Assembly (NCBI GenBank): GCA_963737155.1
Contig: CAVTRN010000001.1
Span: 64,001-128,000, forward strand
Direction of reading: 5' to 3'
Length of the DNA: 64,000 bases
DNA from: Nitrospirota bacterium
GTDB lineage: Bacteria; Nitrospirota; UBA9217
Shown: positions 1 through 15,708 of the stretch, piece by piece
How positions within the stretch are numbered: position 1 is the first letter of the stretch
Layout: each line of letters begins with the position of its first letter
Notes under the pieces: generated by a model
Told to the model about the DNA's origin: nothing
The model's database searches: none
Seen by the model: the letters and a program-made list of their open reading frames with translations, nothing else
Position numbers and translations under genes: made by a program

Positions 1-253
1 TGACGTGCTTGCGCAACAATTCGATCATCTGATCTCTTGTAAGGGCTGGCTCGTCGGTTTCGGGCACAATGTACTTCTGGACGTCTGGATCATCGGAGTA
101 TCGCGCGATCTCACGGGACTTCCGGCTATCCCGATGATCGCTATAAGCGTTGCTCTCAGGGCGAGGCAGGGCGCAGCTCGTCAAGATGACGGGGAATTGC
201 AGGATCAAGGCCGCCATTGTCACTGCAGAACAGAATATCTTAACATGTTTCAT
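1..253 (-). CDS. Lipoprotein, 5' part only (runs off window edge); possibly phosphoesterase/phospholipase C family
   Basis: Not in ORF track. Read manually: ATG at 253, RBS GAAAGGAG upstream, MKHVKIFCSAVTMAALILQFPVILTSCALPRPE...RDQMIELLRKHV, open to base 1. Lipobox-like LTSC. Family is a guess from the ELLRKHV segment. Confidence 0.6.
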   Translation of the reverse strand, partial: MKHVKIFCSAVTMAALILQFPVILTSCALPRPESNAYSDHRDSRKSREIARYSDDPDVQKYIVPETDEPALTRDQMIELLRKHV

Positions 254-552
254 CGAACGTCTCCTTTCGTCAATCCGCGCTTCAGGAAGCGCAGATGAAG
301 AAAACTTTCTTCATGGGCCTCATCTAGTACGCGCTGGGACTATTAAATTATTATGACGGCGCGGTTAGCTGGCGTTTTAACCTCGATTGTGACAATCTCA
401 TTGGTTAATGTATTCACTGGATATGCTATTTACCGAATCCTTATTTCATAACAGCAAGTTGATCTTTCGCTCTAAATTTGTACCACCCCGGGAGTTAGAC
501 TTATAATAGCTGAGGATTAAACGAAAAAAATACTGCAGCAACTCTTTGCCTG

Positions 553-1116
553 TCAGTCACCGCCGATATCAACAGTCACAAAGTACTTATTAATGGCTTC
601 CTTCGTGAATGGAAGATTATCGGTTATTCTGAGGCCGCCGTTCGCCTTACGAACCATGAAGGCTATGTCGCAATCGGCCTTTTTTAGCACTCTGCCATAC
701 AACTCTTGGTCCAAGACATGCGCCAACAATTTCATTTTTGCAGCCGGTTCGACTGTAAATATCATAGATTCTAAGGGCGTATCTTTCATATTATGGAATT
801 CATACTTTCCAATTACGTGTTCAGCGCCCGGCCCAGGGAGCCAGAGAAGAAAATCTCCGCGTGTTACAACGGAAATTGGGTTCTTGCTGCTATTTGTGAT
901 CTCAACAACGATAGGCGGGACTCTCAGCGGAGCCGTTAGGTGTTTCTGTATCGTCTCCATGTTCCCCAGCAATGCCGCAGCGGCAGCAATTACTGCAAGA
1001 ATTGAGGCCAACGTGATCCTCGCTTTTGTAGATATCGCATTCCAGCGTTGCCTCCATGTGATGCGGGACGGGAGTGGCGTTCCATTGGGACCAAGTATTT
1101 TCTTTCCTTGAGTCAT
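553..1116 (-). CDS. Hypothetical protein with single N-terminal TM segment
   Basis: 187-aa ORF with hydrophobic ITLASILAVIAAAAALLG segment; no family recognised. Confidence 0.65.
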   Translation of the reverse strand: MTQGKKILGPNGTPLPSRITWRQRWNAISTKARITLASILAVIAAAAALLGNMETIQKHLTAPLRVPPIVVEITNSSKNPISVVTRGDFLLWLPGPGAEHVIGKYEFHNMKDTPLESMIFTVEPAAKMKLLAHVLDQELYGRVLKKADCDIAFMVRKANGGLRITDNLPFTKEAINKYFVTVDIGGD

Positions 1117-1574
1117 ATTAGAGTCAGTGTTCTATCTGCTTCGGACATGTCTATTCTGCTTTGAAATTCAAGTTCTTTATATATCATGCGGCAGCGGCTG
1201 CCCCATTCTCACGGCGCGAAGCGCCGGGAAAACCAATTATTGAGTAGACTCCTACTGAACAACGCAGAATAAGTGCATAGTTAGGTAGTCTTCTTGGTCA
1301 GTTAATTAACGCTATATTATGCAAAAAATATATTCCTGATTCACGGTTCTGTCAACAAAATCGAAGAGTATGGCGAATGGATATGTGCTTTAAATGTATG
1401 CGGTAATAAATTCTAAATGAAGTATTGACTGTTGCTAAGATTGAAAACTCCAATGGTTCAGGAAGATGTTTTAATTTCAAAAAGATGCAACTTTAGCGGA
1501 CTACAGGATGTAGTCCATTCTCGGCAATTAGTCACAATGTAACTATTTCAAACTGGAACAATTAATCACAATAA

Positions 1575-2036
1575 TTATTTCGGCGGAACCATGACATCTC
1601 CTACACGCTTCCACGTGGCCGAAGTGACCTTCCATGTGCCGTCCTCCCTGGACAGGTCTACCTCAAAATTGTACACGCCAGATTCTTCCGGGAGAATGTT
1701 GCCACTCGTGTCGCGCCCGGTCATGACAGGCTGGAACATGGCCTGCGCGGTTGAACCGCTTACGACAACATCGACGCGCGGGATGTAAACCCCGATCTTC
1801 TGGTGCTGAAAGAAATTGTATGCCAGGATGTCCTTGACGGCGTTATAGTCGTTGCCCTGCGGGTCGTGGTAGCTTTTCGAGAGGTGGTCCAGCACCGCGC
1901 CGATCTTCTTCTCCTCGGCGGCATGCTGGACACTGGTAACGACCTTGATCACCTTTTCCTCTTCCGTGTCCTTCAAGCAGGAGCAAAACAGCGGTATGAG
2001 GAAGAGAATTATAAGCAGCGGCCTACGCGTTATCAT
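1575..2036 (-). CDS. Lipoprotein, NTF2/SnoaL-like fold
   Basis: Signal peptide with FCSC; LSKSYHDPQG and C-terminal LSREDGTWKVTSATW typical of NTF2-like proteins. Confidence 0.7.
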   Translation of the reverse strand: MITRRPLLIILFLIPLFCSCLKDTEEEKVIKVVTSVQHAAEEKKIGAVLDHLSKSYHDPQGNDYNAVKDILAYNFFQHQKIGVYIPRVDVVVSGSTAQAMFQPVMTGRDTSGNILPEESGVYNFEVDLSREDGTWKVTSATWKRVGDVMVPPK

Positions 2037-2256
2037 GGCAGTTTCCCAGTCCAGTCATCAAAATGATTTATCACAAAATAATTCCGAGCCATCCCCTATC
2101 GATCTCCCTCATTTATTGTAACAGACAGAGAAATGATTTGCGGGCAGTTATTTTCAGAGAACCCGAGGTTAATACAAGGTGAGAGGAATTTGCAAGCAGG
2201 CGGGCCGAACCGTGAGGGTTTCGAACTGTCCGGCAACGTGAAAAAACTGTCCTGAT

Positions 2257-2292
2257 AAAAAGAATTGGGGTTACAGCGTACGCTGTAACCCC
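2257..2292 (-). terminator. Rho-independent terminator of tRNA gene
   Basis: Perfect inverted repeat GGGGTTACAGCG-TA-CGCTGTAACCCC (2267-2292) followed on the minus strand by AATTCTTTTT. Confidence 0.75.
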
Positions 2293-2302
2293 TTGATAAG
2301 TT

Positions 2303-2379
<77 letters not shown>

Positions 2380-2392
2380 ATGTGAGATGTGC

Positions 2393-2421
2393 ATATTAAG
2401 GTACTATGGCGGCATTGTCAA
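2393..2421 (-). promoter_or_regulatory. Sigma70 promoter of tRNA-fMet
   Basis: Minus strand TTGACA-17 bp-TAATAT just upstream of the tRNA. Confidence 0.75.
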
Positions 2422-2997
2422 GAAAATTCATTTCCCGGCATGCCGGTAACGGCGGCACCGATTCCGGGGATCATTGCGGCGATGCCGCTGCCGGCGCAGA
2501 GCCTGCCTTTTTACCTGCCTTCCCTCGATTCATCCCGGCCCTGTCTCCGGGTCAAAATCATTCCCCGGGAAGACGCCGGAGAACAGAGGGAGCAATCATG
2601 ATGATTGCGGGAGAGAGCAGTTGTCCGTGCTCCGGCAGCATATCCGTGCCGGACAGCGCCATGCTTGAAACGTCCGGCGAAACCCTGAGCATTCCCCGGG
2701 CGAAACCACGAAACGCAAATAGTTCATCAGTATCCGCTTGCTACTTTTGTCCCCGCCCATAACCTTTCCAAACCCTCTTGTGCTATATTGGAAAGAGAGT
2801 CCGAAAAAGTTCTCTCTTATGCCGACAAAAGCATGCGCCGCAAAACGTGCGGCTCCTGGCGGCATTTTTTTTAAGAGCGGAAAATTACGCAGAAGATGAG
2901 CGGCAAGGCCCTTCCGGAAGTGCGGGCAAATAAATTCCAGGCTTCTTCCGGCGGGCCTTCGGGGAATAATATTCACCTCACGAAGGAGGTAGCGCAA

Positions 2998-3887
2998 ATG
3001 AGACATTCAAGGGTAAGGACGCTGGCGCTGGCCGGCATGCTCTTTTTGGCCGCGGGATGCGCATCGACCCGGCCTGTGGCGCCGGCCGCCGACGAAACTC
3101 CTGCCGCGCATATCCAGGGACGGTGGGTTTGGGCGGAACTGTACGCCGACAATGTCGACACGGAGAAAGCCTTCTACCAGGAGGTCTTCGGCTGGCAGTT
3201 CGAAAGCCGCGGGAGGGGCACGGACACCCATACCCTCGTCCTCGCGGACGGCAAGCCGATCGCCGCCATCATCCAGCATGCGAAGCCGGCCGATGCCGAA
3301 CGCGCAGCGAGGTGGCTGCCGTTCATGTCCGTTCCTGACGCGGTCCGCGCCGCCGAACAGGCGGTCTCCTCCGGCGGCAAGCTCGTCGTCCCCGTCAGAT
3401 CCTCCCGGGGGTGCGTGAGTCCGCGGTCCTCGCAGACCCCGAAGGCGCGTTCTTCGGCGTGGTCCACAACAACGCTGGCGATGCACCGGACGTGTTCCCG
3501 CCCTACGATACCTGGCTATGGTTCGAGCTTTGGGCCAATGACCCGTCGGCGATGGCGGAGTTCTACCGGCCCATCGGCGCCTATACGGTGACGCGCCAGG
3601 AAGGGCCTGACGACCGGACCGAACTGCACCTGGAGGCGGGCGGGTTCCCGCGGGCCGGCATCCTGGAGCTTAAGCACAAGGACCGTCCCTCGACCTGGCT
3701 GCCCTATGTGCGTGTGCAGGACCTGCAGAAGACGGTGGCCAGCGTAACCCGCGCGGGCGGCAGCGTCGTTGTCGAGCCGAGCCCGGAGGTCCGGCACGGA
3801 ACGGTAGCCGTGTTCCTCGACCCGCTGGGCGCGGCGGTGGCGGCTGCAGAGTGGCAGGATGAGACCGGAGAGGAGGGCAAACCATGA
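2998..3887 (+). pseudogene. Tandem VOC/glyoxalase-domain lipoprotein, frameshifted near 3398 (or sequencing error)
   Basis: RBS AAGGAGG, lipobox LAAGC, VOC motifs (WAELY..FYQEVFGW; WLPYVRV..AGGSVVVEP) split between ORFs 2896..3591 and 3411..3887. One added base at ~3398 restores ...VPV-R-ILPGVRESAVLADPEGA. Confidence 0.75.
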
Positions 3888-4180
3888 AACCCTGGGCCAT
3901 CAAGAACGTTATTGCCCGTTTGCTCCTGCTGATGGCGATAGCCATGCTCCTGGCGGGCTGCTATTGGGCCGGCCCCCCGCCGGACGGGGACGGATATTAC
4001 GGAGGATACGCTCCTGCATACTACGGGGGCGACGTGATCATCGGCGTCGGCGGGCACCGGGACGGGGGACGGGGTGACAGGCGGCCTGATGTGTCTCATA
4101 TGCCGGCGCGGCGCCTCCCGGCCCCGGCGCCCCGATCCCAGTCCAGACCGGCTGGGCATCCGCAGCCTGGAAGAAGATGA
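3884..4180 (+). CDS. Small Gly/Tyr/Pro-rich lipoprotein
   Basis: ATGA overlap with upstream gene, RBS GAGGAGG, lipobox LLAGC. Confidence 0.65.
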   Translation: MKPWAIKNVIARLLLLMAIAMLLAGCYWAGPPPDGDGYYGGYAPAYYGGDVIIGVGGHRDGGRGDRRPDVSHMPARRLPAPAPRSQSRPAGHPQPGRR

Positions 4181-4564
4181 GTCTGTGAGGGAGACTTCCC
4201 CGGACATTTGAGAGAGGAAACCCCGAAAGGCTGACGCCTTGAAATGCTGAAGGTGGGTCTCCATGTACAAAAAAAATTGCATCCTGACCGGGCGGGGTTC
4301 CTTCAGAAATAGCGGGGCCGGATGCGCCGGAATGAGCAGGGAGAGATCCGGATCGGCAAGAACGCGGTGGACAAGTTCCGGTTCTTCGTTCCGGTCCCGT
4401 TAAATTTTTTGTTCCAAATTTATTTGTGGCTATGAGCCCGACGAATTCCCCGCCCGTAAGGGCGAGGCAGGTCACTGGTTGGTTTCGTCCGGGATCCCCG
4501 CGTTCGCGATTATCCCGATTATGGTTGAGGGCCGGTAAAAAACCCTCACCGTCGGCCATCGTTT

Positions 4565-4684
4565 TTACCTCAAAAGCCTGCTTTGGAGGATGTCCCGCAG
4601 ATCTCTTCTGCCGTCCAACACGCAGTGAATGAAAACCGGCTCTCCTGCCACTTCATAAATGATACGATAGGGCTTATAATAAAT
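4565..4684 (-). pseudogene. 3' part of ParE/RelE-family toxin interrupted by ISL3
   Basis: Reads IYYKPYRIIYEVAGEPVFIHCVLDGRRDLRDILQSRLLR*, in frame with the 5' part at 6862-7079 once the IS and one TSD copy are removed. Confidence 0.9.
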
Positions 4685-4695
4685 GGCTATTCGGA

Positions 4696-5997
4696 TTATC
4701 CGGTTGTTGAGGCCTGAAAGTCCTCGATGTGGAAATCCTGTGTAAAGGTTGTTATGTCGATTCCAAAGTTCTTTTGAGTGGCGAATGTCATGACTCCTCT
4801 TAGCACCGATGGGGCTATTTCAATGCGAGTTTTAAATTGCTTTGAGTTGAACAGTATTTTTGCTCTTAGAACATCGAAAGAGTACCCGCGGCCATTTCGA
4901 TTTATGTTTTTGATCACGCCATTCTTGGCTTCGGTAAGGGCGTTTGTGATGGGGAAATCGAAGAAGGCGAATATCTCAGTTTCCCAGTGAGTCATAGATA
5001 TGACGAGGGGCTCAAATATGGACTCAATTTCCAACGGGATACTGGCTTTCCAGACTTTGTACGCTTCCTTGGCCTCAATGGCTGTCTGGCAGTTCCAGAT
5101 GTCGAAAAAGGACTCCTTGAGTGTGTATGCCTGCCCCAATTCGGGGAAGTTTTTGGTCCAGATATCGAGTTTCAGCAGCTCTTTCTCATCCAAGTTTTTT
5201 TTGCGTCTAAGCAGGGTGAAGCGGTCCTTCATAAGTGCTCTTCTCCCGTGGCGAGTCTGGTTTTCCCTGGTACGCTTGCGAACGGCTTCAAGTGCATAGT
5301 TCGCCATTTTGACGATGTGAAACTTGTCAATGATGATCCTCGCGTCCGGGATGGCAGCTCGCACGGCATCCCGGTATGGCCGCCACATATCCATGGCAAC
5401 CAGCTCCACAGTCTTACGGTCTGGCATGTTCATCAGGTATTGGTACACGACGTTCTTACTGCGGGTTTCAAGCATGTCGAAGATGGTGGCTTCTTCGATG
5501 TTCGTTAGAACGCAGCGTATGCTTTTAAGCAGGTGAACCTCATCAATACCGAGTATTCGGGGCGTCTCGAACTTGAACCTTTGCTCCAGATCGGCTACGT
5601 GGCCAGAAAAGACGTTGCGCACGGTTTTTTCATCGACGCCAATCTCCTCCGCCATGCTGGTAAAAGTCCTCCTGAGAGATTGCTCCTGGATGTATTTGAT
5701 CAGGCGGTTCGTCATTGCCCGCTTGTCATCGATGTCAGGGGTTGCTTCCAGGAAGGTGCCATTGCACTTTTTACAGCGGTATCTCTGCCGGCCGATGAGG
5801 ATCTCGACCTTCTTCCCATGGATGGATAGGTCGAGGTATGACTGCTCTCTTACGCCATGCTTGATGACAGTATCTTGGCTGAGGCACGTCTCACAGAAGA
5901 CCATCCTCCAAGGGATAGTTTCGGCAGTAAAAACGTAGTGATCTGGATGCTCGTCTTCGGAAATGACTTTTAAATACGGTAAGTTAAGGATGTCCAT
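4696..5997 (-). CDS. ISL3-family DDE transposase
   Basis: Zn-finger CETC..RYRCKKC; LGIDE, VAMDMWRPY, IIDKFHIV and ITNALTEAKNGVIK..RNGRGY motifs; RBS AGGAGG. Confidence 0.95.
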   Translation of the reverse strand: MDILNLPYLKVISEDEHPDHYVFTAETIPWRMVFCETCLSQDTVIKHGVREQSYLDLSIHGKKVEILIGRQRYRCKKCNGTFLEATPDIDDKRAMTNRLIKYIQEQSLRRTFTSMAEEIGVDEKTVRNVFSGHVADLEQRFKFETPRILGIDEVHLLKSIRCVLTNIEEATIFDMLETRSKNVVYQYLMNMPDRKTVELVAMDMWRPYRDAVRAAIPDARIIIDKFHIVKMANYALEAVRKRTRENQTRHGRRALMKDRFTLLRRKKNLDEKELLKLDIWTKNFPELGQAYTLKESFFDIWNCQTAIEAKEAYKVWKASIPLEIESIFEPLVISMTHWETEIFAFFDFPITNALTEAKNGVIKNINRNGRGYSFDVLRAKILFNSKQFKTRIEIAPSVLRGVMTFATQKNFGIDITTFTQDFHIEDFQASTTG

Positions 5998-6058
5998 ACA
6001 GGAGGTTACTATATAATGTCAACCAAAGCAAAGCAAAAACACCCGTGCAAATTTATTA

Positions 6059-6087
6059 TTGCAATGACCTAAATAATGACCTATAAT
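6059..6087 (+). promoter_or_regulatory. Sigma70 promoter and likely autoregulatory operator of the IS-borne TA operon
   Basis: TTGCAA-17 bp-TATAAT; direct repeat AATGACCTA x2 lies across the spacer. Confidence 0.6.
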
Positions 6088-6117
6088 TGTATCATAATTA
6101 TTTGAAAGGAGATCATC

Positions 6118-6363
6118 ATGCAACGAATTCATGCGCGTTCTTCGGTAAGCATTAGCGATTTGAAGAAAAATCCCTCAGGCATCATAACTCAGGCACAAGG
6201 TGAAGCCGTAGCCATCCTCAATCACAACCGGGCCACTGCCTATCTTGTGCCCGCCGCGTCTTTTGAAGCGATGCTAGAGCGGCTTGACGATATTAAACTT
6301 CGCCGTTTGGTGAAGGCGCGACGGAACGAGGCTTCTGTCAAGGTAGCGCTTGATGAGCTATAG
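6118..6363 (+). CDS. Phd/YefM (StbD-like) antitoxin
   Basis: SVSISDLKKNP..GEAVAILNHNRATAYLVPA motif; RBS AAGGAG; overlaps toxin. Confidence 0.92.
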   Translation: MQRIHARSSVSISDLKKNPSGIITQAQGEAVAILNHNRATAYLVPAASFEAMLERLDDIKLRRLVKARRNEASVKVALDEL

Positions 6364-6637
6364 TCTTGAATTCAAGGAATCAGCCTTGAAAGAGTGGCGT
6401 AAACTCGACGAGAGCATCAAAGTGCAGTTCAAAAAACGACTTGCTGGGCGTATTATTTCGCCCCATGTAGCTTCTGCTCGATTGTCCGGAATGCAGAACT
6501 GCTACAAGATCAAACTCAGGGATGCCGGTTACCGGCTTGTATATGAGGTTAACGACAACCGGTTGGTGATTATTGTCATCGCAGTAGGCCGTCGCGACCA
6601 TGATCTTGTTTACAAGCGTGCAGAAAACCGTATGTAA
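6353..6637 (+). CDS. relE: RelE/StbE-family toxin
   Basis: YSLEFKESALKEWRKLD..CYKIKLRDAGYRLVYEV..IAVGRR. Confidence 0.92.
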   Translation: MSYSLEFKESALKEWRKLDESIKVQFKKRLAGRIISPHVASARLSGMQNCYKIKLRDAGYRLVYEVNDNRLVIIVIAVGRRDHDLVYKRAENRM

Positions 6638-6861
6638 AAAATCAACCAGCTACTTGGATACACAACTAGATTTCCCCGGCATCAACCGCAAAATCAGAAT
6701 ACCCTTAATATATTTTGCATGGTTCCAATCTTCGTGACGCCGCAGATATCACGTAGAAAGCGCTACAAGAGGGATAGTGTAAAAAAGATGAAAACAACCA
6801 AATAATCCGATTTGGGATGTCATGACAGAAAATGGAAAACAACCATAAAATCCGAATACCC

Positions 6862-7079
6862 TAATAAATTTCCCGATATTCCCGAATGCCAAGCCGCTCC
6901 AGTTCCGGTGGATAATGCCCCCTTACGGGCGACGTTTGCAGGCTGAGTATGGTTTGTTCGATGTCCAGAAAAAGCCGTTCAGCCTTCTCTTCGGAATCAT
7001 TGCGTTTGACATAGACATACACATCATCTATGTCCCTTTCCGCGTTTTCGAGGATATAAACCGAAAAGAGCTTTGTCAT
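6862..7079 (-). pseudogene. 5' part of ParE/RelE-family toxin interrupted by ISL3
   Basis: AERDIDDVYVYV..RGHYPPELERLGIREYRE; reconstituted protein about 109 aa. Confidence 0.9.
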
Positions 7080-7288
7080 TTGCCTGCTGCCCGTTTTTTC
7101 CGCAAATCCCTGAAAGCCTTTGTAGCCGGTTTGTATCTCCCCGCCTCAAGGCTTTTTTTGCTCTGGGCAAGAATTTTTAACATGGCGAGGCTCTCTTGCA
7201 GCTCCTCATACTCATTGATGCCCTGAATAACCGCCTTTGCCTCTCCATTGAGCGTAATAATAACAGGACTTCGGCTTTCTCCGACCAC
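7076..7288 (-). pseudogene. Phd/YefM antitoxin, apparently 5'-truncated
   Basis: PVIITLNGEAKAVIQ..YEELQESLAMLKILAQ motif. An in-frame TAG lies 5 codons upstream, so the usual N-terminal DNA-binding segment is missing. Confidence 0.7.
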
Positions 7289-7589
7289 CCGTCGCGATCG
7301 CCCCTAACAGCGCCCGGACTGACTGCAAGCCCGACGCGCTACCGGTCTGCTCCGGCCCGCGGCGGATGGTTTAAGGGACATCTTCGGGATGTGCCTGCCG
7401 TCATCATCTCTCCATAACCTCTCCGCTCTATTCTGATCAGTAAGCACGGCTTTCGCGCGCTGCCCGCAGAACGGATAGCCGACATTCGCTCTATTTCAAG
7501 AGACAGGAACATCCACTGCGGTAAATGACGTGGAAACCAGTTTACCGCAAGGACCGTTCTTAAGCCTCCGTGAGCAAGCCTGAATGTAA

Positions 7590-7733
7590 GTGAATTACCC
7601 CGCAGCAAGCTGCGGGGCATCGGAACTTGAAACCTTAAAAAAGCACAACAAAGAAGCTGAAGACTTATCCTAGCTTCGCCAGGATGTCCTTTTCATCCCA
7701 GCAGCAAGCTGCTGGGTATTTCAGGACTGTTTT
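7590..7733 (-). mobile_element. Non-autonomous IS200/IS605-type palindromic mini-element (PATE-like), copy 1
   Basis: Subterminal hairpins CCCCGCAGC-AA-GCTGCGGGG and CCCAGCAGC-AA-GCTGCTGGG. On the minus strand preceded by TTTAT and ending TTCAC. One mismatch versus copy 2. Confidence 0.75.
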
Positions 7734-7819
7734 ATAAAAAATGCCGCTCAAAATTGCTTATCGTGACGGGATATACTTATTATAAGGAAGTCGAAAACTG
7801 GCGGTCAGGAGGGAGAACC

Positions 7820-8908
7820 ATGAAGATTAAATCCGGCCCTATAGCAGCCTTGATGACGGCGCTGTTTTTGATTACAGTAACCGGATGTGGCAACAATAAT
7901 ACCAACAATTTTTTCTATTACGGCGGTGAGAACGATTATATTATGACAGACCCGTCAGGACTTACCTGGATGAAGTTTACCCGTGATCAGAACGGGAACC
8001 TTTCAGGTTACGTGGATGATATTGAAGGTTACACCTATAATTTTACCGGCACGGTGGCTTCAGATGGCACTTTTACACTATCGGGGACGGGTTATGCCGC
8101 GACCGGAACGATATCGACCGATGGAACAGTAAGCATTCCCAGTGAACAGTTGTCGCTCCCCGGAGGCATCTCGTCGACTAATGCATATGGTTTTTTGGTG
8201 CAGCCGGCACTTACGCAGGTCGCCGGTTCCTATTATTCCGCCATAACCGGCACGAGTACTTCGGCATATGGGATTACCATTCATGGCGATGGCACCGTCG
8301 CCGGAGAAAGCCTGGACATTTTCGGGAACAAGTTTACTATTTGTAATGGTTACATAAGCACTTCAGGAAGCACTTCGGGACAGTTCATCGGGCAGGTGAA
8401 GAATCCCAGCCTCTTTTTAGCGCCAATTCCGGTTACGGGTACGACGGATGGAACCAATTTTACGCCGGGCCTCCTGACTTACATCGACCTGACCAGCCGA
8501 ATGAGCAGTACTCTCCAGTGGATGGCGGGGGTACTGTCCATGAATATCAACGCCGGACTGTATTACGGAACAATGGAGTTCGGAGGTGTTACGAGCCCGG
8601 GCAGACTCATCATTAATTCCGATAATGTTATCCTGGGTAATATAAAAACAGATCCTTTGGGCGGACTATATGGCGGATTCTTGTCGGGGAACGCTTACCA
8701 GCCTGATCCTGCAACGAGTCCTTCGCAATGGGCATTTAATTTGGACTATTCCATCAATACCTACTCCGCTGCAACCGGATACGGCTCTCTCCCGGGCGGA
8801 ACCTTCAGCGGCAGTTTTTCAGGCTACACTTTAAGCGGGGATGGTACAAGCAATTCTACTCCCCCGCAGACCGGGATGATCAGTTTCTCACTGATCAACA
8901 GCTTCTAG
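7820..8908 (+). CDS. Gly/Thr-rich hypothetical lipoprotein
   Basis: RBS GGAGGGAG before ATG 7820; lipobox VTGC; beta-rich composition. Confidence 0.75.
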   Translation: MKIKSGPIAALMTALFLITVTGCGNNNTNNFFYYGGENDYIMTDPSGLTWMKFTRDQNGNLSGYVDDIEGYTYNFTGTVASDGTFTLSGTGYAATGTISTDGTVSIPSEQLSLPGGISSTNAYGFLVQPALTQVAGSYYSAITGTSTSAYGITIHGDGTVAGESLDIFGNKFTICNGYISTSGSTSGQFIGQVKNPSLFLAPIPVTGTTDGTNFTPGLLTYIDLTSRMSSTLQWMAGVLSMNINAGLYYGTMEFGGVTSPGRLIINSDNVILGNIKTDPLGGLYGGFLSGNAYQPDPATSPSQWAFNLDYSINTYSAATGYGSLPGGTFSGSFSGYTLSGDGTSNSTPPQTGMISFSLINSF

Positions 8909-9071
8909 GGGTCAAGACAGATAATGAGGAAGACTATTATCGTTTGAGCAACCTGCGGTTTCTCAAGCACTTCCCTCAATAAGTGTCAATGGTCATCTAA
9001 AAGTGTACCTCCCTCATGCATTCCTCTGGTTTATTTGTTTGATCAGTTCTTGGTATTTCGGAGTGGAAGTT

Positions 9072-10598
9072 TCACTCCAGACTGTATAGATATGCTGAAG
9101 CTTTGTCCGCTTTTATTTCATCTAACTTCATACCTATCTTATTCAGCATAAAGATAAAATATTTCTCTTCATCAATAAGGGGGGCAGAAATTACTTTTCC
9201 CTGGTTGCCCTTATGTGAAAATATGAACCATACTCTACTGTTGCCTTTGAGCTGTTGCAAATCAGCTGCATAATCATTAGGATTACTTCCTGAAGCGATT
9301 CCCTCGACTATTTTGACGGTTTGTAAATTGAACTTTGGTAAATAGTATCTGAAAGCAGGAATAGAGCTATACGATACATATATTACATCGCTACTTACTT
9401 TGTGATGTGCAACATACTCCAATACCGACCTTATATCTTCATGGTTGTCTGGATGTTTTAAATTCTCAATTGCTTGGCTCGCCGGACTGTGTAATATTAA
9501 TATGGCTATGGATAAGCTAATACAAAAGGCAACAAACGAATGTTTTTTCGCAATAAAAATTCGTATCTGTTCGATCCCCTCCGCTATATACAAAAAAATA
9601 AATGGCACTGCAAATAATAAGAGCCTGCCATAGAATGGATATTTTTTTAAGCCTGAAGCCAATATTGTAAATAATAACGGCGTAATTATTATTATGGCTG
9701 TTCGCCTTTTTCTGATTGAGTATGTTGCACATCCTACTAAAATCAAAAGAGAACTGACAGACTTAATAGAAGACCTACTAGAAAGTCCGAGAAGATAATG
9801 GTACATTTCGCTGTATGCATGTCGAAACCAAATGGGGTTTTTCCATGGAGGCATAGGCATAAAGTATTCATTCCAATATGATACCAGGTATGAATTCGAT
9901 GCCAATTGACTAAATGATATTGAATAAAGTACTACAAAATTAACTATCCATATAAGCAGCGTCAGTACAAACAATTTACGGGTTCCCTGATCTTTCATTG
10001 TGAAAATATCAAAAATGAAACACAAGCTTATACCAGAGATAATAAAGAAAGCTGGATGAGACAGCCACATAGAAATACAGCCAACCAATATCAAAGTAAT
10101 TATATTTTTAGGCCTTGAGTCTGGGCCAATGCATTTATCGGCGCATAGCAATAACAATAGAGTCACCATTACATCACTAGAATACTGTTTACACTCAGAT
10201 GCATAATATATCATTGAGCTATTTATAGAGAATAGAGTAATGGCCACTATTTTACCTATTCCTTTTGTATAGGCATTAGCAACATAATAAATTAATATTA
10301 AAGAAAGCAACCCAGCTATAAAAGGGAAAGCTCGCAACACATAATCCGTATTACCAAAAGCAGAAATAAAAAGCTTTTGTATAAATAGAAACCCTATTGG
10401 TGCGCCTTGGTCATAGGAGAGTGGTTGAGTGAGTTCAAAAAATGAACTATTGACTATATTAAGGGCTAGAGTCGCTTCGTCAAACCACAATGACCGATTA
10501 AATACATATTGATAAGATCGTAAAATCAAGCCACAAACCAATATTAAATATATTGCAATATTGTATAAATTGTCATGTCGGCTTTTATCGTTATTCAT
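9072..10598 (-). CDS. GT-C (GT39/PMT-like) polytopic membrane glycosyltransferase
   Basis: RSLWFDE..QGAPIGFL..YASECKQYS motifs, many TM segments; visibly AT-rich DNA. Confidence 0.75.
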   Translation of the reverse strand: MNNDKSRHDNLYNIAIYLILVCGLILRSYQYVFNRSLWFDEATLALNIVNSSFFELTQPLSYDQGAPIGFLFIQKLFISAFGNTDYVLRAFPFIAGLLSLILIYYVANAYTKGIGKIVAITLFSINSSMIYYASECKQYSSDVMVTLLLLLCADKCIGPDSRPKNIITLILVGCISMWLSHPAFFIISGISLCFIFDIFTMKDQGTRKLFVLTLLIWIVNFVVLYSISFSQLASNSYLVSYWNEYFMPMPPWKNPIWFRHAYSEMYHYLLGLSSRSSIKSVSSLLILVGCATYSIRKRRTAIIIITPLLFTILASGLKKYPFYGRLLLFAVPFIFLYIAEGIEQIRIFIAKKHSFVAFCISLSIAILILHSPASQAIENLKHPDNHEDIRSVLEYVAHHKVSSDVIYVSYSSIPAFRYYLPKFNLQTVKIVEGIASGSNPNDYAADLQQLKGNSRVWFIFSHKGNQGKVISAPLIDEEKYFIFMLNKIGMKLDEIKADKASAYLYSLE

Positions 10599-10841
10599 AA
10601 TATATACGCCATTTTTCTTTTGAAGATGTCTCGTTGCCAAAATGGTTAGGCAGCCTTAAGCAAATAAAACGGCCTCCTTCACCGAATCCGGGGTGCTGTT
10701 GGAACGACAAGTATAAAAGAAGAGCATAGCTAACCAAGTCAGTGTAAGATGTTTCCGCGACGAAATATCAGAACACAGACAGGAAATGCCTATTCCGCTA
10801 TAAACACAACATTGGCAGTATGCTGACAATAATTCAATCAC

Positions 10842-11195
10842 CTATTTTTTTATTTGTGGCCCAAAGGTGATATCAGCAACCCAGACCTGATTGACACCGG
10901 TCACGTTCAGGCCTTTGATCGGGTTCGGGTATACGGGATAAAGGTGGTTGCTGTCCGTGGTCTTAACGAACCGTCGGGTCTTCTTCGCAAAAAGACCCTT
11001 TTCTCGCATGATCCGCTGGACTTTCTTGCAGTTTACCACCATGCCATCACGGCGGAGCTGAGCCGATATTTTTCGGTAGCCGTACGTAGCAAAGTCTTCA
11101 GCAATCTCTTCGATCCGGGCGATAATGGCTTGGTCCTCAGGAGAAATCTCCCGGGGCTTCAGCTTGTAGTAATAACTGGTTCGAGGGAGGTTCAT
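10842..11195 (-). pseudogene. IS3 OrfB, C-terminally truncated
   Basis: HTH_21 region plus only the start of the rve domain. Confidence 0.85.
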
Positions 11196-11622
11196 GAGTT
11201 CGCACCCCCTCGTGATGGTTTTGATAAGGTCTCGGTAATGAACTGCCTTTTTCCCGGGACTGTTCGAAGCTCTGATGCAGAGCTTTTTTTAAAAACGCAT
11301 TCTCCAGATGGGCGTTTCCGAGTGCCTGCTCTAATTGGCAAATCCGTTCTTCTCGGGCAGCTTCCCGGGCTGAACCGGCCTCAAAGCTGTTTTTAAGACA
11401 TTGCCTTCTCCAATGATACAAAAGTCCGGAAGAAATACTATGTTTCCGGCAGAGCTGAGCCGCGGTACCGTCACCGCTGAGATATTCTTCAACAACTTGA
11501 CGTTTGAATTCGATGCTGAAACTTCTCTGTTTTCTCATGACAAGATCCTTTCTGCCCGTCCCGGGCCGGGGATCCTGCCTGATAGTCTAACATATTTTGT
11601 CTAAACGGAGGGGGGCAGTTCA
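10860..11622 (-). mobile_element. Truncated IS3-family element (IRL, orfA, partial orfB)
   Basis: IRL TGAACTGCCCCCCTCCGTTTAGACA at 11622. orfA HTH (FSIEFKRQVV..LENAFLKKA). orfB (SYYYK..YGYRKI..NQVWVADIT) stops after the first catalytic Asp. Confidence 0.85.
11137..11538 (-). pseudogene. IS3 OrfA
   Basis: HTH_Tnp_1-like sequence; A7G run at FLKKA. Confidence 0.8.
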
Positions 11623-11623
11623 C

Positions 11624-11652
11624 TTGACAAACCGACGGCATATGGTTATACT
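11624..11652 (+). promoter_or_regulatory. Sigma70 promoter of vapBC
   Basis: TTGACA-17 bp-TATACT, starting 2 bp outside the IS3 IRL. Confidence 0.75.
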
Positions 11653-11690
11653 TTATATAATTTGTAAGTCTAACTAATAGGAGTAAGCCT

Positions 11691-11978
11691 ATGTCCATAG
11701 CTGTTGTTTCTTCTAAAGGGCAACTTGTGATACCAAAAGAATTGCGGGACGCATTGTCCATTCAAGCCGGACAAAAGGTACTTGTAAAATTGGTCAAAGA
11801 CCACGTTGAGGTTGTTCCGCTGCCCAAGGACCCCGCCAAGGCCTACTGCGGGGCATTTGAGAAAGGCTCCTCACTGACTGCGGCGCTCTTGCGAGATCGA
11901 AAGGAGGACTTGGAGCATGAAGAAAATAAGACTGCTCGATTCATTCGCCATACTCGCCTATCTCAAAAAGGAAAATAA
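11691..11978 (+). CDS. vapB: AbrB/MazE-type antitoxin (VapB)
   Basis: VSSKGQLVIPKELRDALSIQAGQKV AbrB motif; overlaps PIN gene. Confidence 0.88.
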   Translation: MSIAVVSSKGQLVIPKELRDALSIQAGQKVLVKLVKDHVEVVPLPKDPAKAYCGAFEKGSSLTAALLRDRKEDLEHEENKTARFIRHTRLSQKGK

Positions 11979-12312
11979 TTATCTTCGCGTCAAAGAACTT
12001 CTATCCACCCCAGACATCCCTGTACTCATGAACGATATTAATGTAGGAGAAACATACTACATTCTGGCCAAAAATAGAGGGAAGGAACAAGCTGATATTT
12101 TTCTTACTGTAATGCTTCCTAGCCTTCCAATTATCGTTCGTTCCAATTTGTTTGAGCATGTTATTGAGGCATCGAGGATTAAGGCAAATCATACGCTTTC
12201 TTTTGCCAACTGTTTCGCTGTAGCAACTGCCTTGCGAGAAAGCGCAATTATTGTCACCGGTGACCCCGAATTCAAGGCCGTGCTGAAGCTCGTCGAAATA
12301 GAGTGGTTATAG
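11917..12312 (+). CDS. vapC: PIN-domain toxin (VapC)
   Basis: LLDSFAIL..NVGETYY..LSFANC..IVTGDPEF; Asn replaces the usual Asp in LSFAD. Confidence 0.88.
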   Translation: MKKIRLLDSFAILAYLKKENNYLRVKELLSTPDIPVLMNDINVGETYYILAKNRGKEQADIFLTVMLPSLPIIVRSNLFEHVIEASRIKANHTLSFANCFAVATALRESAIIVTGDPEFKAVLKLVEIEWL

Positions 12313-12984
12313 TTCTCCCTCCATAAATAAACTGTTTCATGCCTACTTTACAAGTTAGTAAATAAACAGCATACGCCATAAGACACTATTTGCTTTGTCA
12401 AACATATAATTCCGATTTTTTATTCAGAGATGGTCCAGAATCTCATGGACCCGGGTTATACTGAATCTGCGAGAGTTCACCGCCCTCTCTCGCGAGAATC
12501 CCTTTCGGCATCTCAAGCCCTGAAATCTGACAATTCACCGGTAAATTAAACATAGACAAAAAGCTGTGTTCTGGTATAATCCAACCTGCCAATGGCGAAT
12601 CGAAACCGGCATCTAGACAAAGAGCCTCGATCACGTCGGGATGGTGGGACGGGTTAATTTGACCACGCGGATTTAGCACCTCTTCTCTGACCTCGTTTTC
12701 CTCATCTTTTGCTTTAAAATACAGGCGATACAGTCAAAAGTTTTATGAAAACTCAAGAGGCATGTATGAAACCACAGAGGGAGCGGAGGGAAACCACCTA
12801 AATGGCGTGCCACTGTGCTCGCGTGGTTGATAGGTCAAGAAAGGTCCAGAAGCGCTGGTAATAAGGGGGCATAGAGAGGGAGAAATGACAATAACGGATT
12901 TTCTCTCTGAATTCAATATGTACTCTGTTTTTTATGCTTAATAGAGAGTTTGACAATACGCCATATTTATCGAGGAGAAATATT

Positions 12985-15708
12985 GTGAAAAAATTGCTGA
13001 GAATATCTTTGGTTGGTCTAATGTTGGCGGCTACGCTGGCCGCCTGTGCCGGAGGAGGTGGGGGTACAGACCCAAATACCACATATACCGTAACCTATAA
13101 TGGCAACGGCAGTATCAGCGGCATTGTCCCTGTTGACTCAACTAACTACGCACACGGACAAACTGCCACGGTGCCGGGGAATACAGGCAACCTTGTAAAT
13201 ACAGGATATTCCTTTGTGGGCTGGAACACGCTGGCTAACGGGACCGGCACGACTTATACGCCGGGGCAGACATTCACGATGGGTACGGCAAATGTTATTC
13301 TGTATGCGATGTGGACCACAAAACCCACGTACACTGTAACGTATAACGGCAACGGCAATACCGGCGGCACAGCCCCTGTTGTTTCAACCAACTACGAGCA
13401 GGGCCAGACCGTTTCGGTAGTCGCCAATCCTGGCAATCTCGTGGATACTGACTACACCTTCGCGGGCTGGAATACGTTGGCTAATGGATCCGGAACGACC
13501 TATACGCAGGGGCAGACATTCCTGATGGGGACGGCGAATGTTACCCTGTACGCGAAGTGGACCGCAAATCCCACCTATACCGTAACGTATAACGGCAATG
13601 TCAACACCGGCGGCAGTGTCCCGATTGATTCAACCAACTACGAGCAGGGACAAACCGTCACGGTGCTCGGCAATACCGGCAATCTCGTGAATGCCAACTA
13701 TACCTTCAAGGGTTGGAACACGCTGTCTAGCGGAACCGGAACGACTTATACGCAGGGGCAGACATTCACGATGGGGACGGCAAATGTTATCCTGTACGCA
13801 ACGTGGACTGCAAATCCCACCTATACCGTAACGTATAACGGCAATGTCAACACCGGCGGCAGTGTCCCTGTTGATTCAACCAACTACGAGCAGGGGCAAA
13901 CCGTCACAGTGCTCGGCAATACCGGCAATCTCGTGAATACCAACTATACCTTCGAGGGCTGGAACACGCTGTCTAACGGAACCGGAACGACTTATACGCA
14001 GGGGCAGACATTCACGATGGGGACGGCAAATGTTATCCTGTACGCAACGTGGATTGCTGCTCCTTCGACCGGCTTGCAGATTGTATCATTAGGTTCCACA
14101 TCCGTCTCGTCCATGTCTACGCTGACCATTACCGGCAGTGGTTTAGACGCGGCGAACAGCGAGGTGTCTGTCAGGTTTACGCCGGAGGATGGTTCCGCCG
14201 CAATGACGATTCCAGCCATCTCCGTTTCAGCGACCACGATCGCCGTACCGACGCCCGTGTTTTTCGACCCGACCACCTGCCTGTCGATTCCCGAAACGGT
14301 GGATGTGGACGTGATCGAGTACACGAACGGAACGATCAACGTGTCCAATACCCTGACCGGCCTGCAGGTGTCCGCTTTGCCGGCCATGCCGGCCGGAACC
14401 ACTCCGGGAGCCCTGACCACCCTGTTCCTCGAGACGGCTGCCAACGTGTCCACCGCAACACAGAGCAGTATCGCCTCCCAGGCAAGCCTGTCAATACTCG
14501 CGAGGGCCCTGAACACGCAGAACACCGACCTGAATCTGGTTATTTCGGCACTGAACGGCGTGATTCAGAGTTCCGGCTCCAGCACCACCATCACCTTGAG
14601 CGCCGGAACAGAGATCACCCTGAGTCCCGGCGTATTGGCTGCTTCGGACGAGATCATACAAGCCTACCTTGCGAACGCCGCGGCCGCGATCAACTCCGTC
14701 CCAACCTCGACGGAAGAGACGAAAGCGACCGTCAATAAGTATCTGGTGTCTGAGAAAACGATATCAGTCCCGCCGCCTTCGACTGCCGAAGTGGGCAGCA
14801 ATAACAGCGCCTATCTTACCCAGGTCTCCAATTTCTACAACAATCTTTCCGGGGCCAATCCGGCAATCAGCGCCCTGGAGGAAAAGTTATTGATCAACAT
14901 TACCGCGGAAGCGGCCGGCGGCGAGTTCATCGGCGAACTGGGGAACGCCTACAACGCTGCGGGCGCAATGTCGCTCACGTGGGACGCCTTCGTGGCCATG
15001 GCTTCCTCGCGGATCGTCAACGGTGAGGCTCCGGAGGGGAGCGAATTGTTTACCGGCGCCGGCGGCTCGCTCTACGAACAGTTGATCCAGAACCTGGCCC
15101 AAACCGATACTCACGGGGCGGTCGGCATCGGTGTCGATGCCATCGAAATCATGCACCTCGCGGCAACCACCCTTCCGACGACAAATCCCTCCATTGGCCA
15201 GCTCATCCAGAACGGCGGGCTCTATTCCGCGCCACAAGGCGATACGCTGATCGTGATCGTAAGCGGCAATCAGACACTGCAGATTCCACAGACGCCCGGG
15301 TCTTTCAGCAGTACGGACCTCGTCATCCCCTCCTGTATCGGCGACACATCACTCAGCTCCGGCTCCACCTGCAGCAGCGGATCATCCAGCAGCAGCTCGT
15401 CAAGCAGCAGTTCATCGAGCAGCAGTTCGTCCAGCAGCAGTTCGTCGAGCAGCAGCTCGTCAAGCAGCAGTTCGTCAAGCAGCAGTGGCTCCGGCACTTC
15501 GTATTATACTTATTGTGTCGAAACCCTGACCTGGACTTATCCTCCGGGTGTTTGGAATAGTGGTACTTTCGCAGGAAGTAATTCACCCGGTAATGATCCA
15601 AATGGCTGTGGCGGAAGTGGTCTTGGCTCCTGCTCCTATACGACAACGTGGTATTGTGACAGCGGTACTTATCCGGACCCTTGCGCGACTGCTTGTATTA
15701 TTCAATAA
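12985..15708 (+). CDS. Surface lipoprotein: four InlB B-repeats, Ig/IPT-like region, poly-Ser linker, Cys-rich C-terminus
   Basis: GTG start after GAGGAG, lipobox LAAC, 4x YTVTYNGNG..F.GWNT...GTGT.Y..G..F.M...NV.LYA.W; ends CATACIIQ. Confidence 0.88.
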   Translation: MKKLLRISLVGLMLAATLAACAGGGGGTDPNTTYTVTYNGNGSISGIVPVDSTNYAHGQTATVPGNTGNLVNTGYSFVGWNTLANGTGTTYTPGQTFTMGTANVILYAMWTTKPTYTVTYNGNGNTGGTAPVVSTNYEQGQTVSVVANPGNLVDTDYTFAGWNTLANGSGTTYTQGQTFLMGTANVTLYAKWTANPTYTVTYNGNVNTGGSVPIDSTNYEQGQTVTVLGNTGNLVNANYTFKGWNTLSSGTGTTYTQGQTFTMGTANVILYATWTANPTYTVTYNGNVNTGGSVPVDSTNYEQGQTVTVLGNTGNLVNTNYTFEGWNTLSNGTGTTYTQGQTFTMGTANVILYATWIAAPSTGLQIVSLGSTSVSSMSTLTITGSGLDAANSEVSVRFTPEDGSAAMTIPAISVSATTIAVPTPVFFDPTTCLSIPETVDVDVIEYTNGTINVSNTLTGLQVSALPAMPAGTTPGALTTLFLETAANVSTATQSSIASQASLSILARALNTQNTDLNLVISALNGVIQSSGSSTTITLSAGTEITLSPGVLAASDEIIQAYLANAAAAINSVPTSTEETKATVNKYLVSEKTISVPPPSTAEVGSNNSAYLTQVSNFYNNLSGANPAISALEEKLLINITAEAAGGEFIGELGNAYNAAGAMSLTWDAFVAMASSRIVNGEAPEGSELFTGAGGSLYEQLIQNLAQTDTHGAVGIGVDAIEIMHLAATTLPTTNPSIGQLIQNGGLYSAPQGDTLIVIVSGNQTLQIPQTPGSFSSTDLVIPSCIGDTSLSSGSTCSSGSSSSSSSSSSSSSSSSSSSSSSSSSSSSSSSSSSSGSGTSYYTYCVETLTWTYPPGVWNSGTFAGSNSPGNDPNGCGGSGLGSCSYTTTWYCDSGTYPDPCATACIIQ
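15388..15486 (+). repeat. 15-bp tandem repeat encoding poly-Ser linker
   Basis: AGCAGCAGYTCRTCV x6 plus a partial unit. Confidence 0.9.

Follow-up and report, generated by a model that had tools for sequence, protein, structure and literature searches.

Toxin-antitoxin (TA) operons are known on plasmids, phages, Tn3 transposons and Xer-dependent dif modules, and their movement between and within genomes is poorly explained. A locus that bears on this problem is found in a 64,000-nucleotide stretch of DNA from a Nitrospirota bacterium (NCBI GenBank assembly GCA_963737155.1, contig CAVTRN010000001.1, positions 64,001 to 128,000 of the forward strand; hereafter the window, in whose numbering positions are given). 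A transposase gene and a TA operon lie there side by side, enclosed by the two halves of another toxin gene. This raises the question whether the operon is a component of a mobile element or its neighbor, and whether the arrangement belongs to one insertion or to a whole group of elements. The analysis makes it probable that the locus holds an autonomous transporter insertion sequence (IS) of the ISL3 family, referred to as element A, which carries a complete RelE-type TA operon drawn from the host's own taxonomic family, which transposed into a resident parE gene, and which is one of a group that usually carries TA modules. Genomes (G), loci (L) and metagenome runs (X) are cited by code where they have to be told apart; G000 is the genome of the window, with contigs C1 and C2.

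Structure of element A

Element A is an ISL3-family IS of 2,177 bp at window positions 4685-6861. Its features, including the terminal inverted repeats (IRs) and the two copies of the target duplication, are listed from left to right with the evidence in brackets.

4677-4684, no strand: left copy of the target duplication, the exact octamer TAATAAAT
4685-4708, plus strand: terminal IR at the transposase-stop end, beginning GGCTATTCGG (0 mismatches to the repeat pattern described below)
4696-5997, minus strand: transposase gene of the ISL3 DDE type, full length, 433 aa (Pfam and NCBIfam)
5998-6117, no strand: divergent intergenic region of 120 bp between the transposase gene and the TA operon, with the TA promoter-like site
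6118-6363, plus strand: cargo antitoxin of the Phd/YefM family, 81 aa (Pfam PhdYeFM_antitox, 4.5e-11; NCBIfam phd_fam)
6353-6637, plus strand: cargo toxin of the RelE type, 94 aa from ATG 6353, or 95 from TTG 6350 (homology)
6683-6704, minus strand: subterminal repeat 1, a full internal copy of the IR sequence (repeat analysis and pattern search)
6790-6812, minus strand: subterminal repeat 2, a copy of the inner part of the IR (repeat analysis)
6838-6861, minus strand: terminal IR at the cargo end, beginning GGGTATTCGG when read inward
6862-6869, no strand: right copy of the target duplication, the exact octamer TAATAAAT

The two terminal arms are imperfect IRs of 24 nt that are complementary at 20 of 24 positions (83%) and start with GGC and GGG, as is typical of ISL3 elements with their imperfect IRs of about 15-40 bp beginning with GG. 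The flanking octamer likewise agrees with the 8-bp, usually AT-rich target duplication of this family, and the sister elements described below also have 8-bp AT-rich duplications. The transposase matches the Pfam families DDE_Tnp_ISL3 (1.6e-57, profile positions 1-240 of 240), Zn_ribbon_ISL3 (3.3e-10) and HTH_Tnp_ISL3 (2.2e-9) as well as the NCBIfam equivalog transpos_ISL3 (280 bits, cut-off 180). It is a DDE transposase with an N-terminal zinc ribbon and helix-turn-helix (HTH), the combination by which ISL3 members are recognized.

The TA genes sit between 5998 and 6838, inside the repeats, which is the arrangement of a transporter IS. The toxin open reading frame (ORF; 6350-6637) matches Pfam ParE_toxin (6.5e-13), and residues 1-93 of its 95 align with the E. 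coli RelE structures 4V7K and 4FXE (E 8e-27, phmmer); the NCBIfam family RelE_StbE is reached with 30 bits at a cut-off of 27.9. Given the end-to-end alignment with E. coli RelE, the toxin is placed in the RelE family and phd-relE is a fair name for the operon. The cargo antitoxin found no match among the PDB sequences. Its gene lies upstream of the toxin gene with an 11-nt overlap, the gene order of type II TA systems. An earlier note on this DNA, made from the letters alone, had described IRs at 4685 and 6861 with an exact target duplication and, between them, the transposase and a divergent, intact phd-relE operon; the repeat analysis, Pfam, NCBIfam and the RelE structures agree with it on each of these points. 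It had also given the operon a promoter of its own. What stands of this is a sigma-70-like site, TTGCAA-17-TATAAT, at 6059-6087(+), which is a consensus match only (10/12).

Subterminal copies of the inner repeat are present in the sister elements B, C and D as well as in A, so the copies at 6683-6704 and 6790-6812 are a family trait. A candidate for a vestigial IR in the space that separates the TA pair from the transposase start (about 6020-6045) was rejected, since 1,726 of 2,000 shuffles reached the observed score. A further promoter-like site, ATGACA-18-TAAAAT (10/12 of the consensus), is located at 6822-6851(+) within the cargo-side terminal repeat and faces outward into the flank. Outward or junction promoters are known from ISL3 members (PMC9330008).

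The interrupted resident locus

The DNA on both sides of element A belongs to a second TA locus, of which the following parts are found.

4565-4684, minus strand: 3' portion of the resident toxin gene (ParE type) with its final 39 codons and the stop (restored 109-codon frame)
6870-7079, minus strand: 5' part of the same gene, first 70 codons (Pfam ParE_toxin and homologues)
7076-7292 (ORF 7076-7288), minus strand: resident Phd/YefM-type antitoxin gene, truncated (homology stops after 7292)

In-silico excision of 4685-6869, that is the element and one copy of the duplication, yields a 109-codon frame on the minus strand. The earlier note had predicted a restored 109-aa ParE/RelE-type toxin, and the frame is indeed colinear with loci in G006 and G002, which belong to the same genus. 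The comparison with these relatives was made on the DNA of the restored frame rather than on a joined protein: the blastn alignments run unbroken over the junction, from window 4583 to 7269 or 7284, with identities of 76.3% over 502 nt and 75.8% over 516 nt. The ORF 6861-7079, which includes one duplication copy, matches Pfam ParE_toxin (1.4e-6, profile positions 3-61 of 89). The 5' piece is 76% identical to the uninterrupted gene in G006 and 69% to that in G002, and is matched in 11 of the 61 genomes searched, the window's own included. The 3' part has no Pfam match on its own and is colinear with the intact homologues L067 and L068. One of these, L067, aligns with ParE structures (5CW7 at 9e-7; 5CW7 and 5CZF at about 1e-6). 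The Pfam match of the 5' part and the structural matches of this homologue identify the resident toxin as ParE type.

The resident antitoxin matches its Pfam profile at positions 20-69 of 74 only and is therefore truncated at its N-terminus, as the earlier note had recognized. About 21 of the 92 codons found in its intact homologues L067 and L068 are missing at the N-terminal end, together with the upstream region. A 92-aa Phd-type antitoxin gene precedes the toxin gene in both G006 and G002. A comparison with the uninterrupted locus, proposed in the earlier note, can be made: the locus is intact in these two genomes, and the site is empty in metagenome run X1 (see below). Flanks 7289-7588 and 3880-4570 are found in none of the 14 other genomes of the genus, so that only the TA genes themselves are comparable and not an orthologous chromosomal place.

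By sequence, the resident system is therefore of the ParE type and the cargo system of the RelE type. The two toxins share a 23-residue local match only, and the two antitoxins give no pairwise alignment. Because the antitoxins are without pairwise similarity and RelE stands opposite ParE, cross-neutralization between the two pairs is unlikely. As a description, the earlier statement that one TA system was replaced by another is fair, as the two are of different kinds.

In place of the resident antitoxin 5' end, the window has GC-rich DNA (7293-7588) that is unique in the genome and present in 0/14 other genomes of the genus. The DNA past 7292 is unique in the genome save for a transposable element of the miniature inverted-repeat type (MITE) further on, and no truncation mechanism was identified in it. 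This repeat of 150 bp at 7589-7738 occurs in more than 20 copies of 97-99% identity on both genome contigs. It seems to be a high-copy MITE with no relation to the ISL3 ends; from weaker matches, it may have a longer relative of about 560 bp with which it shares its ends.

Empty site and second insertion site in soil metagenomes

The stretch 4300-7400 was compared with the Logan contigs of four coded soil-metagenome runs. A 613-nt contig of X1 joins position 4677 to 6863 and skips 2,185 nt, which is the element plus one duplication copy. Between 6863 and 7292 this contig has 21 differences from the window in 430 nt, and beyond 7292 it continues for 91 letters that are unlike the window. The printed start of these letters, on the minus strand, reads as N-terminal antitoxin residues that have no counterpart in the window. 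X1 holds a relative of about 95% identity in which the site is empty and the antitoxin is whole. Both lesions, the insertion and the truncation, are therefore derived in the window's lineage.

Contigs of X1 and X3 carry element A itself, with 0-3 differences per contig, and cover the interior from the transposase gene to phd-relE. The element ends (4684/4685 and 6861/6862) are joined to other flanks in these contigs, with a run of T on each side, and this is a second site. An X1 record (record 4, 5898-6199, 0 differences) connects the transposase start to the TA operon. Contigs of X2 and X6 span the window's own left and right junctions with 0 differences. The earlier note held that copies of the transposase lacking the TA genes within their IRs would speak against a TA-carrying element; the second-site contigs contain the TA genes. 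The presence of the same element at a second site, where the flanks are different, shows that element and cargo move together. In this way the X1 and X3 contigs indicate indirectly that the element transposes as a discrete unit, which is a property of ISL3 elements.

Sister units in the same genome

To find related units, a pattern was built from the repeat of element A, its matches were sorted by pairs, and the target duplications were checked. The pattern has 14 sites in the genome, compared to one for the reversed control. Element F was found via its transposase and has slightly different repeats from those of A. The units are as follows.

A: 2,177 bp; transposase present; Phd + RelE; duplication TAATAAAT
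B: 1,083 bp; no transposase; MazE-type antitoxin + PIN toxin; duplication TATTTTTA
C: 3,305 bp; transposase 50% identical to that of A; Gp49 toxin + HTH_37 antitoxin + ROS/MucR-like ORF; duplication AATTATTT
D: 304 bp; no transposase; no cargo; duplication CAAAATAT
E: 164 bp; no transposase; no cargo; duplication in 7/8 letters
F, three copies 99.9-100% identical: 2,131 bp; transposase 46% identical to that of A; MNT + HepT; duplications AAAAAAAA, TTATTATT and ATTTTAGA
Solo repeat remnant, C2:927417-927438: no transposase; Gp49 + HTH; duplication not applicable

A TA module is found in all five kinds of gene-bearing unit of this genome (5/5), each of a different type or sequence. All 8 insertions of the element group in this genome have AT-rich 8-bp duplications, in line with what the earlier note had stated for ISL3 members. 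The ends of B match those of C, on one side at 84% over 98 nt. The ParE/RelE, PIN, HepT and Gp49 families give 22 matches in the genome, 6 of which are located within the 12,958 bp (0.27%) of A, B, C and the three F copies; as these copies are one lineage, the independent count is 4 rather than 6.

In element F, the transposase start codon and the stop codon of HepT overlap (TAATG; L009 1490-1494, on G000:C2; further copies at G000:C1:1562714 and C1:135348), which gives MNT, HepT and the transposase the appearance of a single, translationally coupled operon. The Gp49 + HTH pair at the solo repeat (L100 752-1385; G000:C2:926668-927301) adjoins this ISL3-type repeat, an IS110-family transposase gene is located on the other side, and the locus looks like a TA-bearing element that lost its other end.

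Cargo in other genomes of the phylum

Among 400 other genomes of the phylum, 10 contain the repeat pattern with up to one mismatch; the control has 0 matches there. It is found in 5/14 genomes of the genus and in 3/4 of one other genus of the family. The 21 loci examined represent 19 units, two of which were not assessable (one at a contig end, the other a 355-bp gene-free element). ORFs of at least 55 aa within 1.4 kb inward of each end (90 ORFs) were compared with Pfam (E<=1e-4). TA-type families lie just inside 12 of the 17 assessable ends, from nine other genomes of the phylum. Three combinations occur at two ends each (Gp49 + HTH_37, DUF6364 + PIN_3, DUF6922 + AbiEii) and three at one end each (Phd + PIN_3, Phd + PIN, MazE + PemK/MazF). 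Single components, at one end each, are an 'addiction module' antitoxin, a Phd match below the cut-off and a HipA-like kinase.

As a matched control, the 1.4 kb outward of the ends was scanned in the same way (96 ORFs). TA-type families were found at 3 of 18 ends, or at 4 with a lone HTH_3 included. Fisher's exact test gives p = 0.002 for inward versus outward (0.007 with the fourth control end); because the genomes are related, these p values are too small.

Several of these units are delimited by target duplications. G001 has two TA-only cassettes with exact 8-bp duplications, of 843 bp with GCATTTTT and of 1,249 bp with TTTTATTT, and a 3,696-bp element in G110 has an exact 8-bp duplication as well. 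The duplication of a 1,245-bp cassette in G010 agrees in 7/8 letters; for the MazEF unit in G011 a duplication was looked for and none was seen. B and the G001 and G010 units have the properties of mobile insertion cassettes, namely IS-type repeats, a target duplication, no transposase and passenger genes. Gene-free versions of these ends measure 164-355 bp.

The three TA modules found within 1.4 kb outside TA-carrying or related elements are a HigB-like + HTH_3 pair (L144 1652-2245), GNAT + TacA1 (L135 1716-2710) and MazE with a PIN fragment (L147 1556-2244). They may reflect TA-rich islands or tandem cassettes.

Reach of the pattern and probable origin of the cargo

The nearest relatives of the transposase on genome contigs (17 loci) reach at most 47% identity over the full length and 52% on a fragment; on metagenome contigs (23 loci) the maximum is 46%. 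A search of plasmid DNA with the element transposase gave 367 records, none covering 80%, and the plasmid ISL3 genes listed reach at most 48% identity for the best-covered and 51% over shorter matches. In relatives from other phyla (41-47% identity), the transposase and the upstream repeat are likewise 0.6-2.9 kb apart. Among these relatives, 8-bp duplications are confirmed for L043, L044, L046 and L048, and the small ORFs in this space are mostly without a Pfam match. Hints of TA-related content are limited to a Fic-domain ORF in L026 (no duplication seen), a HepT fragment in L027 (cut by the contig) and DUF5397 with a weak Cas2/VapD-like match in L028. What the whole transposase clade has in common is a cargo slot upstream of the transposase; TA genes as its content characterize the group defined by these particular ends and not the clade.

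A homologue of the cargo RelE with 80% identity is found in G036, which belongs to a different genus of the same family. The DNA of this locus (L105) is 83.2% identical to element positions 1375-1928, equivalent to window 6059-6612, so that the homology spans from the -35 hexamer to near the toxin stop. There is no repeat end and no transposase near L105, which adjoins a 379-aa chromosomal ORF that is housekeeping-like by eye. The transposase of A, in contrast, is matched at E<=1e-60 in only 1 of 63 other genomes of the family, with 34% identity. Judging from these homologies, the local gene pool most likely supplied an incoming IS with a minimal TA operon, promoter included.

Genomic surroundings

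Element A lies about 2 kb from a tRNA gene (2306-2379(-), 61.5 bits), in a stretch that resembles a genomic island in its GC content, which varies between 34% and 69%. The tRNA gene is followed by a sub-threshold match to the small RNA BjrC68 (2258-2305(-), 30.5 bits against a gathering score of 39); an Rfam scan of 1-14000 gave nothing but these two. A PIN-domain match (48.9 bits) is located at 11932-12282(+) (G000:C1:75932-76282), about 5 kb from element A.

Proposed course of events and points against it

In the reading put forward here, an IS would have gained the TA operon from among the chromosomal TA loci of the host's own family, and it holds the operon between its upstream repeat and its transposase gene. 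All 2,177 bp would then have been transposed by the ISL3 DDE enzyme into an AT-rich octamer inside the resident parE gene. The octamer would have been duplicated and parE split, and in the same lineage about 21 codons at the start of the resident antitoxin gene, with the region upstream of them, would have been lost. The sequences show the anatomy and boundaries of the element, its movement as one unit, the pattern of its family and the excess of TA genes among the cargo, whereas the role of the TA pair is inferred.

In type II systems the toxin outlasts the labile antitoxin. If the cargo RelE likewise outlasts its antitoxin, loss of the element or its replicon would be penalized, and the TA pair may thus serve the element as a maintenance (addiction) module. 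The pair may in addition influence transposase expression, which could be tied to an autoregulated TA promoter by the common 120-bp control region in A and by a single operon in F. More broadly, ISL3-type ends may form a cassette system with a TA operon as standard cargo, in which TA genes are an integral maintenance or control module rather than an accidental passenger. At least 10 TA module types share the slot, and autonomous elements with TA genes and transposase share their ends with transposase-less cassettes. We put this broader reading forward tentatively, with somewhat less confidence than an even chance would warrant.

A number of observations weigh against these readings. Element A itself is the only full-length copy in its genome, and no transposase more than 52% identical to its own was found in the three collections scanned. 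No TA genes were recognized in the relatives L043, L044, L045, L046 and L048/L049, nor in five elements of the phylum that have ORF6N, methyltransferase or unknown ORFs, nor in four plasmid relatives with hypothetical, TetR-type or other neighbors (judged by annotation, for elements that were not delimited). In the cargo scan, 5 of the 17 ends are without a TA match (ORF6N, cupin, FtrD-like and two without a relevant match), 3 of the 12 positive ends (L132, L140 and L146) have a single component, and the L140 match is below the Pfam cut-off. Seven further repeat matches stand outside the count, two without loci and five unlisted. The metagenome contigs are short, the two second-site flanks are on separate contigs, and positions 6600-6669 are absent among the X1 records listed, though that bin has depth. 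Transposase activity, RelE toxicity, neutralization by Phd and promoter function are predicted from sequence, and the maintenance and regulatory roles are inferred by analogy with the TA modules of the Tn3 family.

Alternative explanations

The TA pair could instead be a beneficial passenger of the host, for example a phage-defense/abortive-infection or stress module, which the IS merely spreads. The cargo types across the element family do include listed defense modules (AbiEii, HepT/MNT, Gp49/HTH and PIN), and different cargo is found between unchanged ends, which is what one would expect of accessory genes that can be exchanged. However, the TAATG overlap in F and the shared control region in A both point to coupling with transposition. 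We consider this explanation rather unlikely; the defense role is hypothetical, and a role for the host and one in element maintenance are not mutually exclusive.

Another proposal, made in the earlier note, is that the insertion was selected as a knockout of a resident toxin left without its antitoxin. In the window's lineage the toxin is split and the antitoxin truncated, and neither lesion is found in the X1 relative of about 95% identity; moreover, the toxin halves still form an open 109-codon frame, so that the insertion is not old. Yet the truncation removes the antitoxin 5' end and the region upstream, where the operon promoter would be, and the toxin was probably silenced by that same event. 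The octamer is AT-rich like all 8 targets of the group in this genome and needs no special explanation. Insertions in a toxin gene are tolerated anyway and those in an antitoxin gene are not, which by itself creates a survivor bias. The order of insertion and truncation is not readable from the sequence. Selection for the knockout is not supported and appears improbable.

The same low standing is given to the idea, also in the earlier note, that the elements home to TA loci through a preference for TA genes or their surroundings. Element A lies inside a parE gene, a PIN-domain match is found about 5 kb away in the window, and 3/18 outward flanks hold another TA module within 1.4 kb, which is more than expected of a random window. 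On the other hand, only one of the 8 insertions in the element's own genome is inside a TA gene, and in none of the 18 outward flanks in other genomes does a TA gene abut the repeat end (split genes were not looked for). If TA modules and IS gather in the same permissive islands, co-location is expected, and a shared place in variable islands accounts for the pattern no less well than homing. Within the genus, no other genome has the local flanks (0/14). Targeting of TA loci is thus not supported either.

Finally, a chance juxtaposition of a plain IS, an unrelated TA pair and a stray repeat copy beyond it, for which the inner repeat-like copies at 6683-6704 and 6790-6812 could in principle provide a working end, is very improbable, because even the innermost copy (6683-6704) is already beyond the TA pair, positions 4685 and 6861 are bordered by the exact 8-bp duplication, precisely 2,185 nt are missing from the empty-site contig, the breaks in the second-site contigs fall at 4684/4685 and 6861/6862 (which contradicts juxtaposition unless these contigs are chimeric), and the search for a vestigial repeat between transposase and TA pair did no better than shuffles (1,726/2,000).

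Relation to known systems

The cargo operon is similar to E. coli RelBE in that its toxin aligns end to end with RelE and the antitoxin gene is upstream and overlapping. Its antitoxin differs by having a Phd/YefM fold and not that of RelB, and the pairing is presumably StbD/StbE-like.

ISL3 elements with passenger genes, transporter IS as a class (PMC9330008; PMC10132070), TA modules in Tn3 transposons and mobile insertion cassettes are already known. Element A shares with ISPst2 and ISPpu12 an ISL3 DDE transposase, repeats beginning GGGTAT.CGGA, 8-bp AT-rich duplications and extra genes inside the repeats. By a hand count, its ends agree with the repeats of ISPst2 (PMC6305408, Table 3) at 20-21 of 24 letters, with 21/24 for 6838-6861 against the right-hand repeat (IRR); the AT-rich 8-bp duplications printed in that paper are TTTTTAAA and CAAAAAAG. 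The passengers are different: ISPst2 carries a permease and an ArsR regulator, and ISPpu12 a lipoprotein signal peptidase, a metal antiporter and TnpR, a regulator that controls transposition (PMC4133298).

The closest precedents for the role of the cargo are this TnpR and the TA pairs of Tn3-family transposons, which include Tn5501 and Tn4662a (Lima-Mendez et al. 2020, PMC7157771). In that family, type II TA pairs (ParE, Gp49/HTH, PIN_3 and others) adjoin the transposition genes and are not placed like ordinary passengers, and they were acquired several times and swapped among related elements (PMC7157771). Tn3-family transposons differ from element A by a TnpA of about 1,000 aa, a resolvase with a res site and 38-bp repeats. 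Element A, unlike these, is a small IS without a resolution system, and TA-only cassettes with the same ends exist. B and the G001 and G010 units resemble mobile insertion cassettes and MITEs that are mobilized in trans, with IS-type repeats, 8-bp duplications and no transposase; mobilization in trans is predicted for them too. Unlike in known mobile insertion cassettes, the cargo here is predominantly TA modules. A literature search that did not extend to ISfinder/TnPedia entries, subscription journals or supplements found no description of TA cargo in ISL3 elements or ISL3-ended cassettes, so that a prior mention is possible.

Implications

The single insertion into parE is a neat but ordinary event, and the TA cargo across the element family is the notable part. 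A small IS and still smaller IS-derived cassettes carry TA genes here, with boundaries, duplications, an empty site and a second site that are visible in the sequence. For annotation, this is a warning that TA pairs next to ISL3 genes may belong to the element. If general, the arrangement would provide a simple and testable vehicle for the mobility of TA operons, and it would add a second, independent transposon family in which TA pairs are placed beside the transposase, which bears on the question whether TA systems stabilize or regulate transposable elements. If the cassette reading is true, TA operons in these bacteria would spread and turn over as IS-borne or IS-mobilized cassettes.

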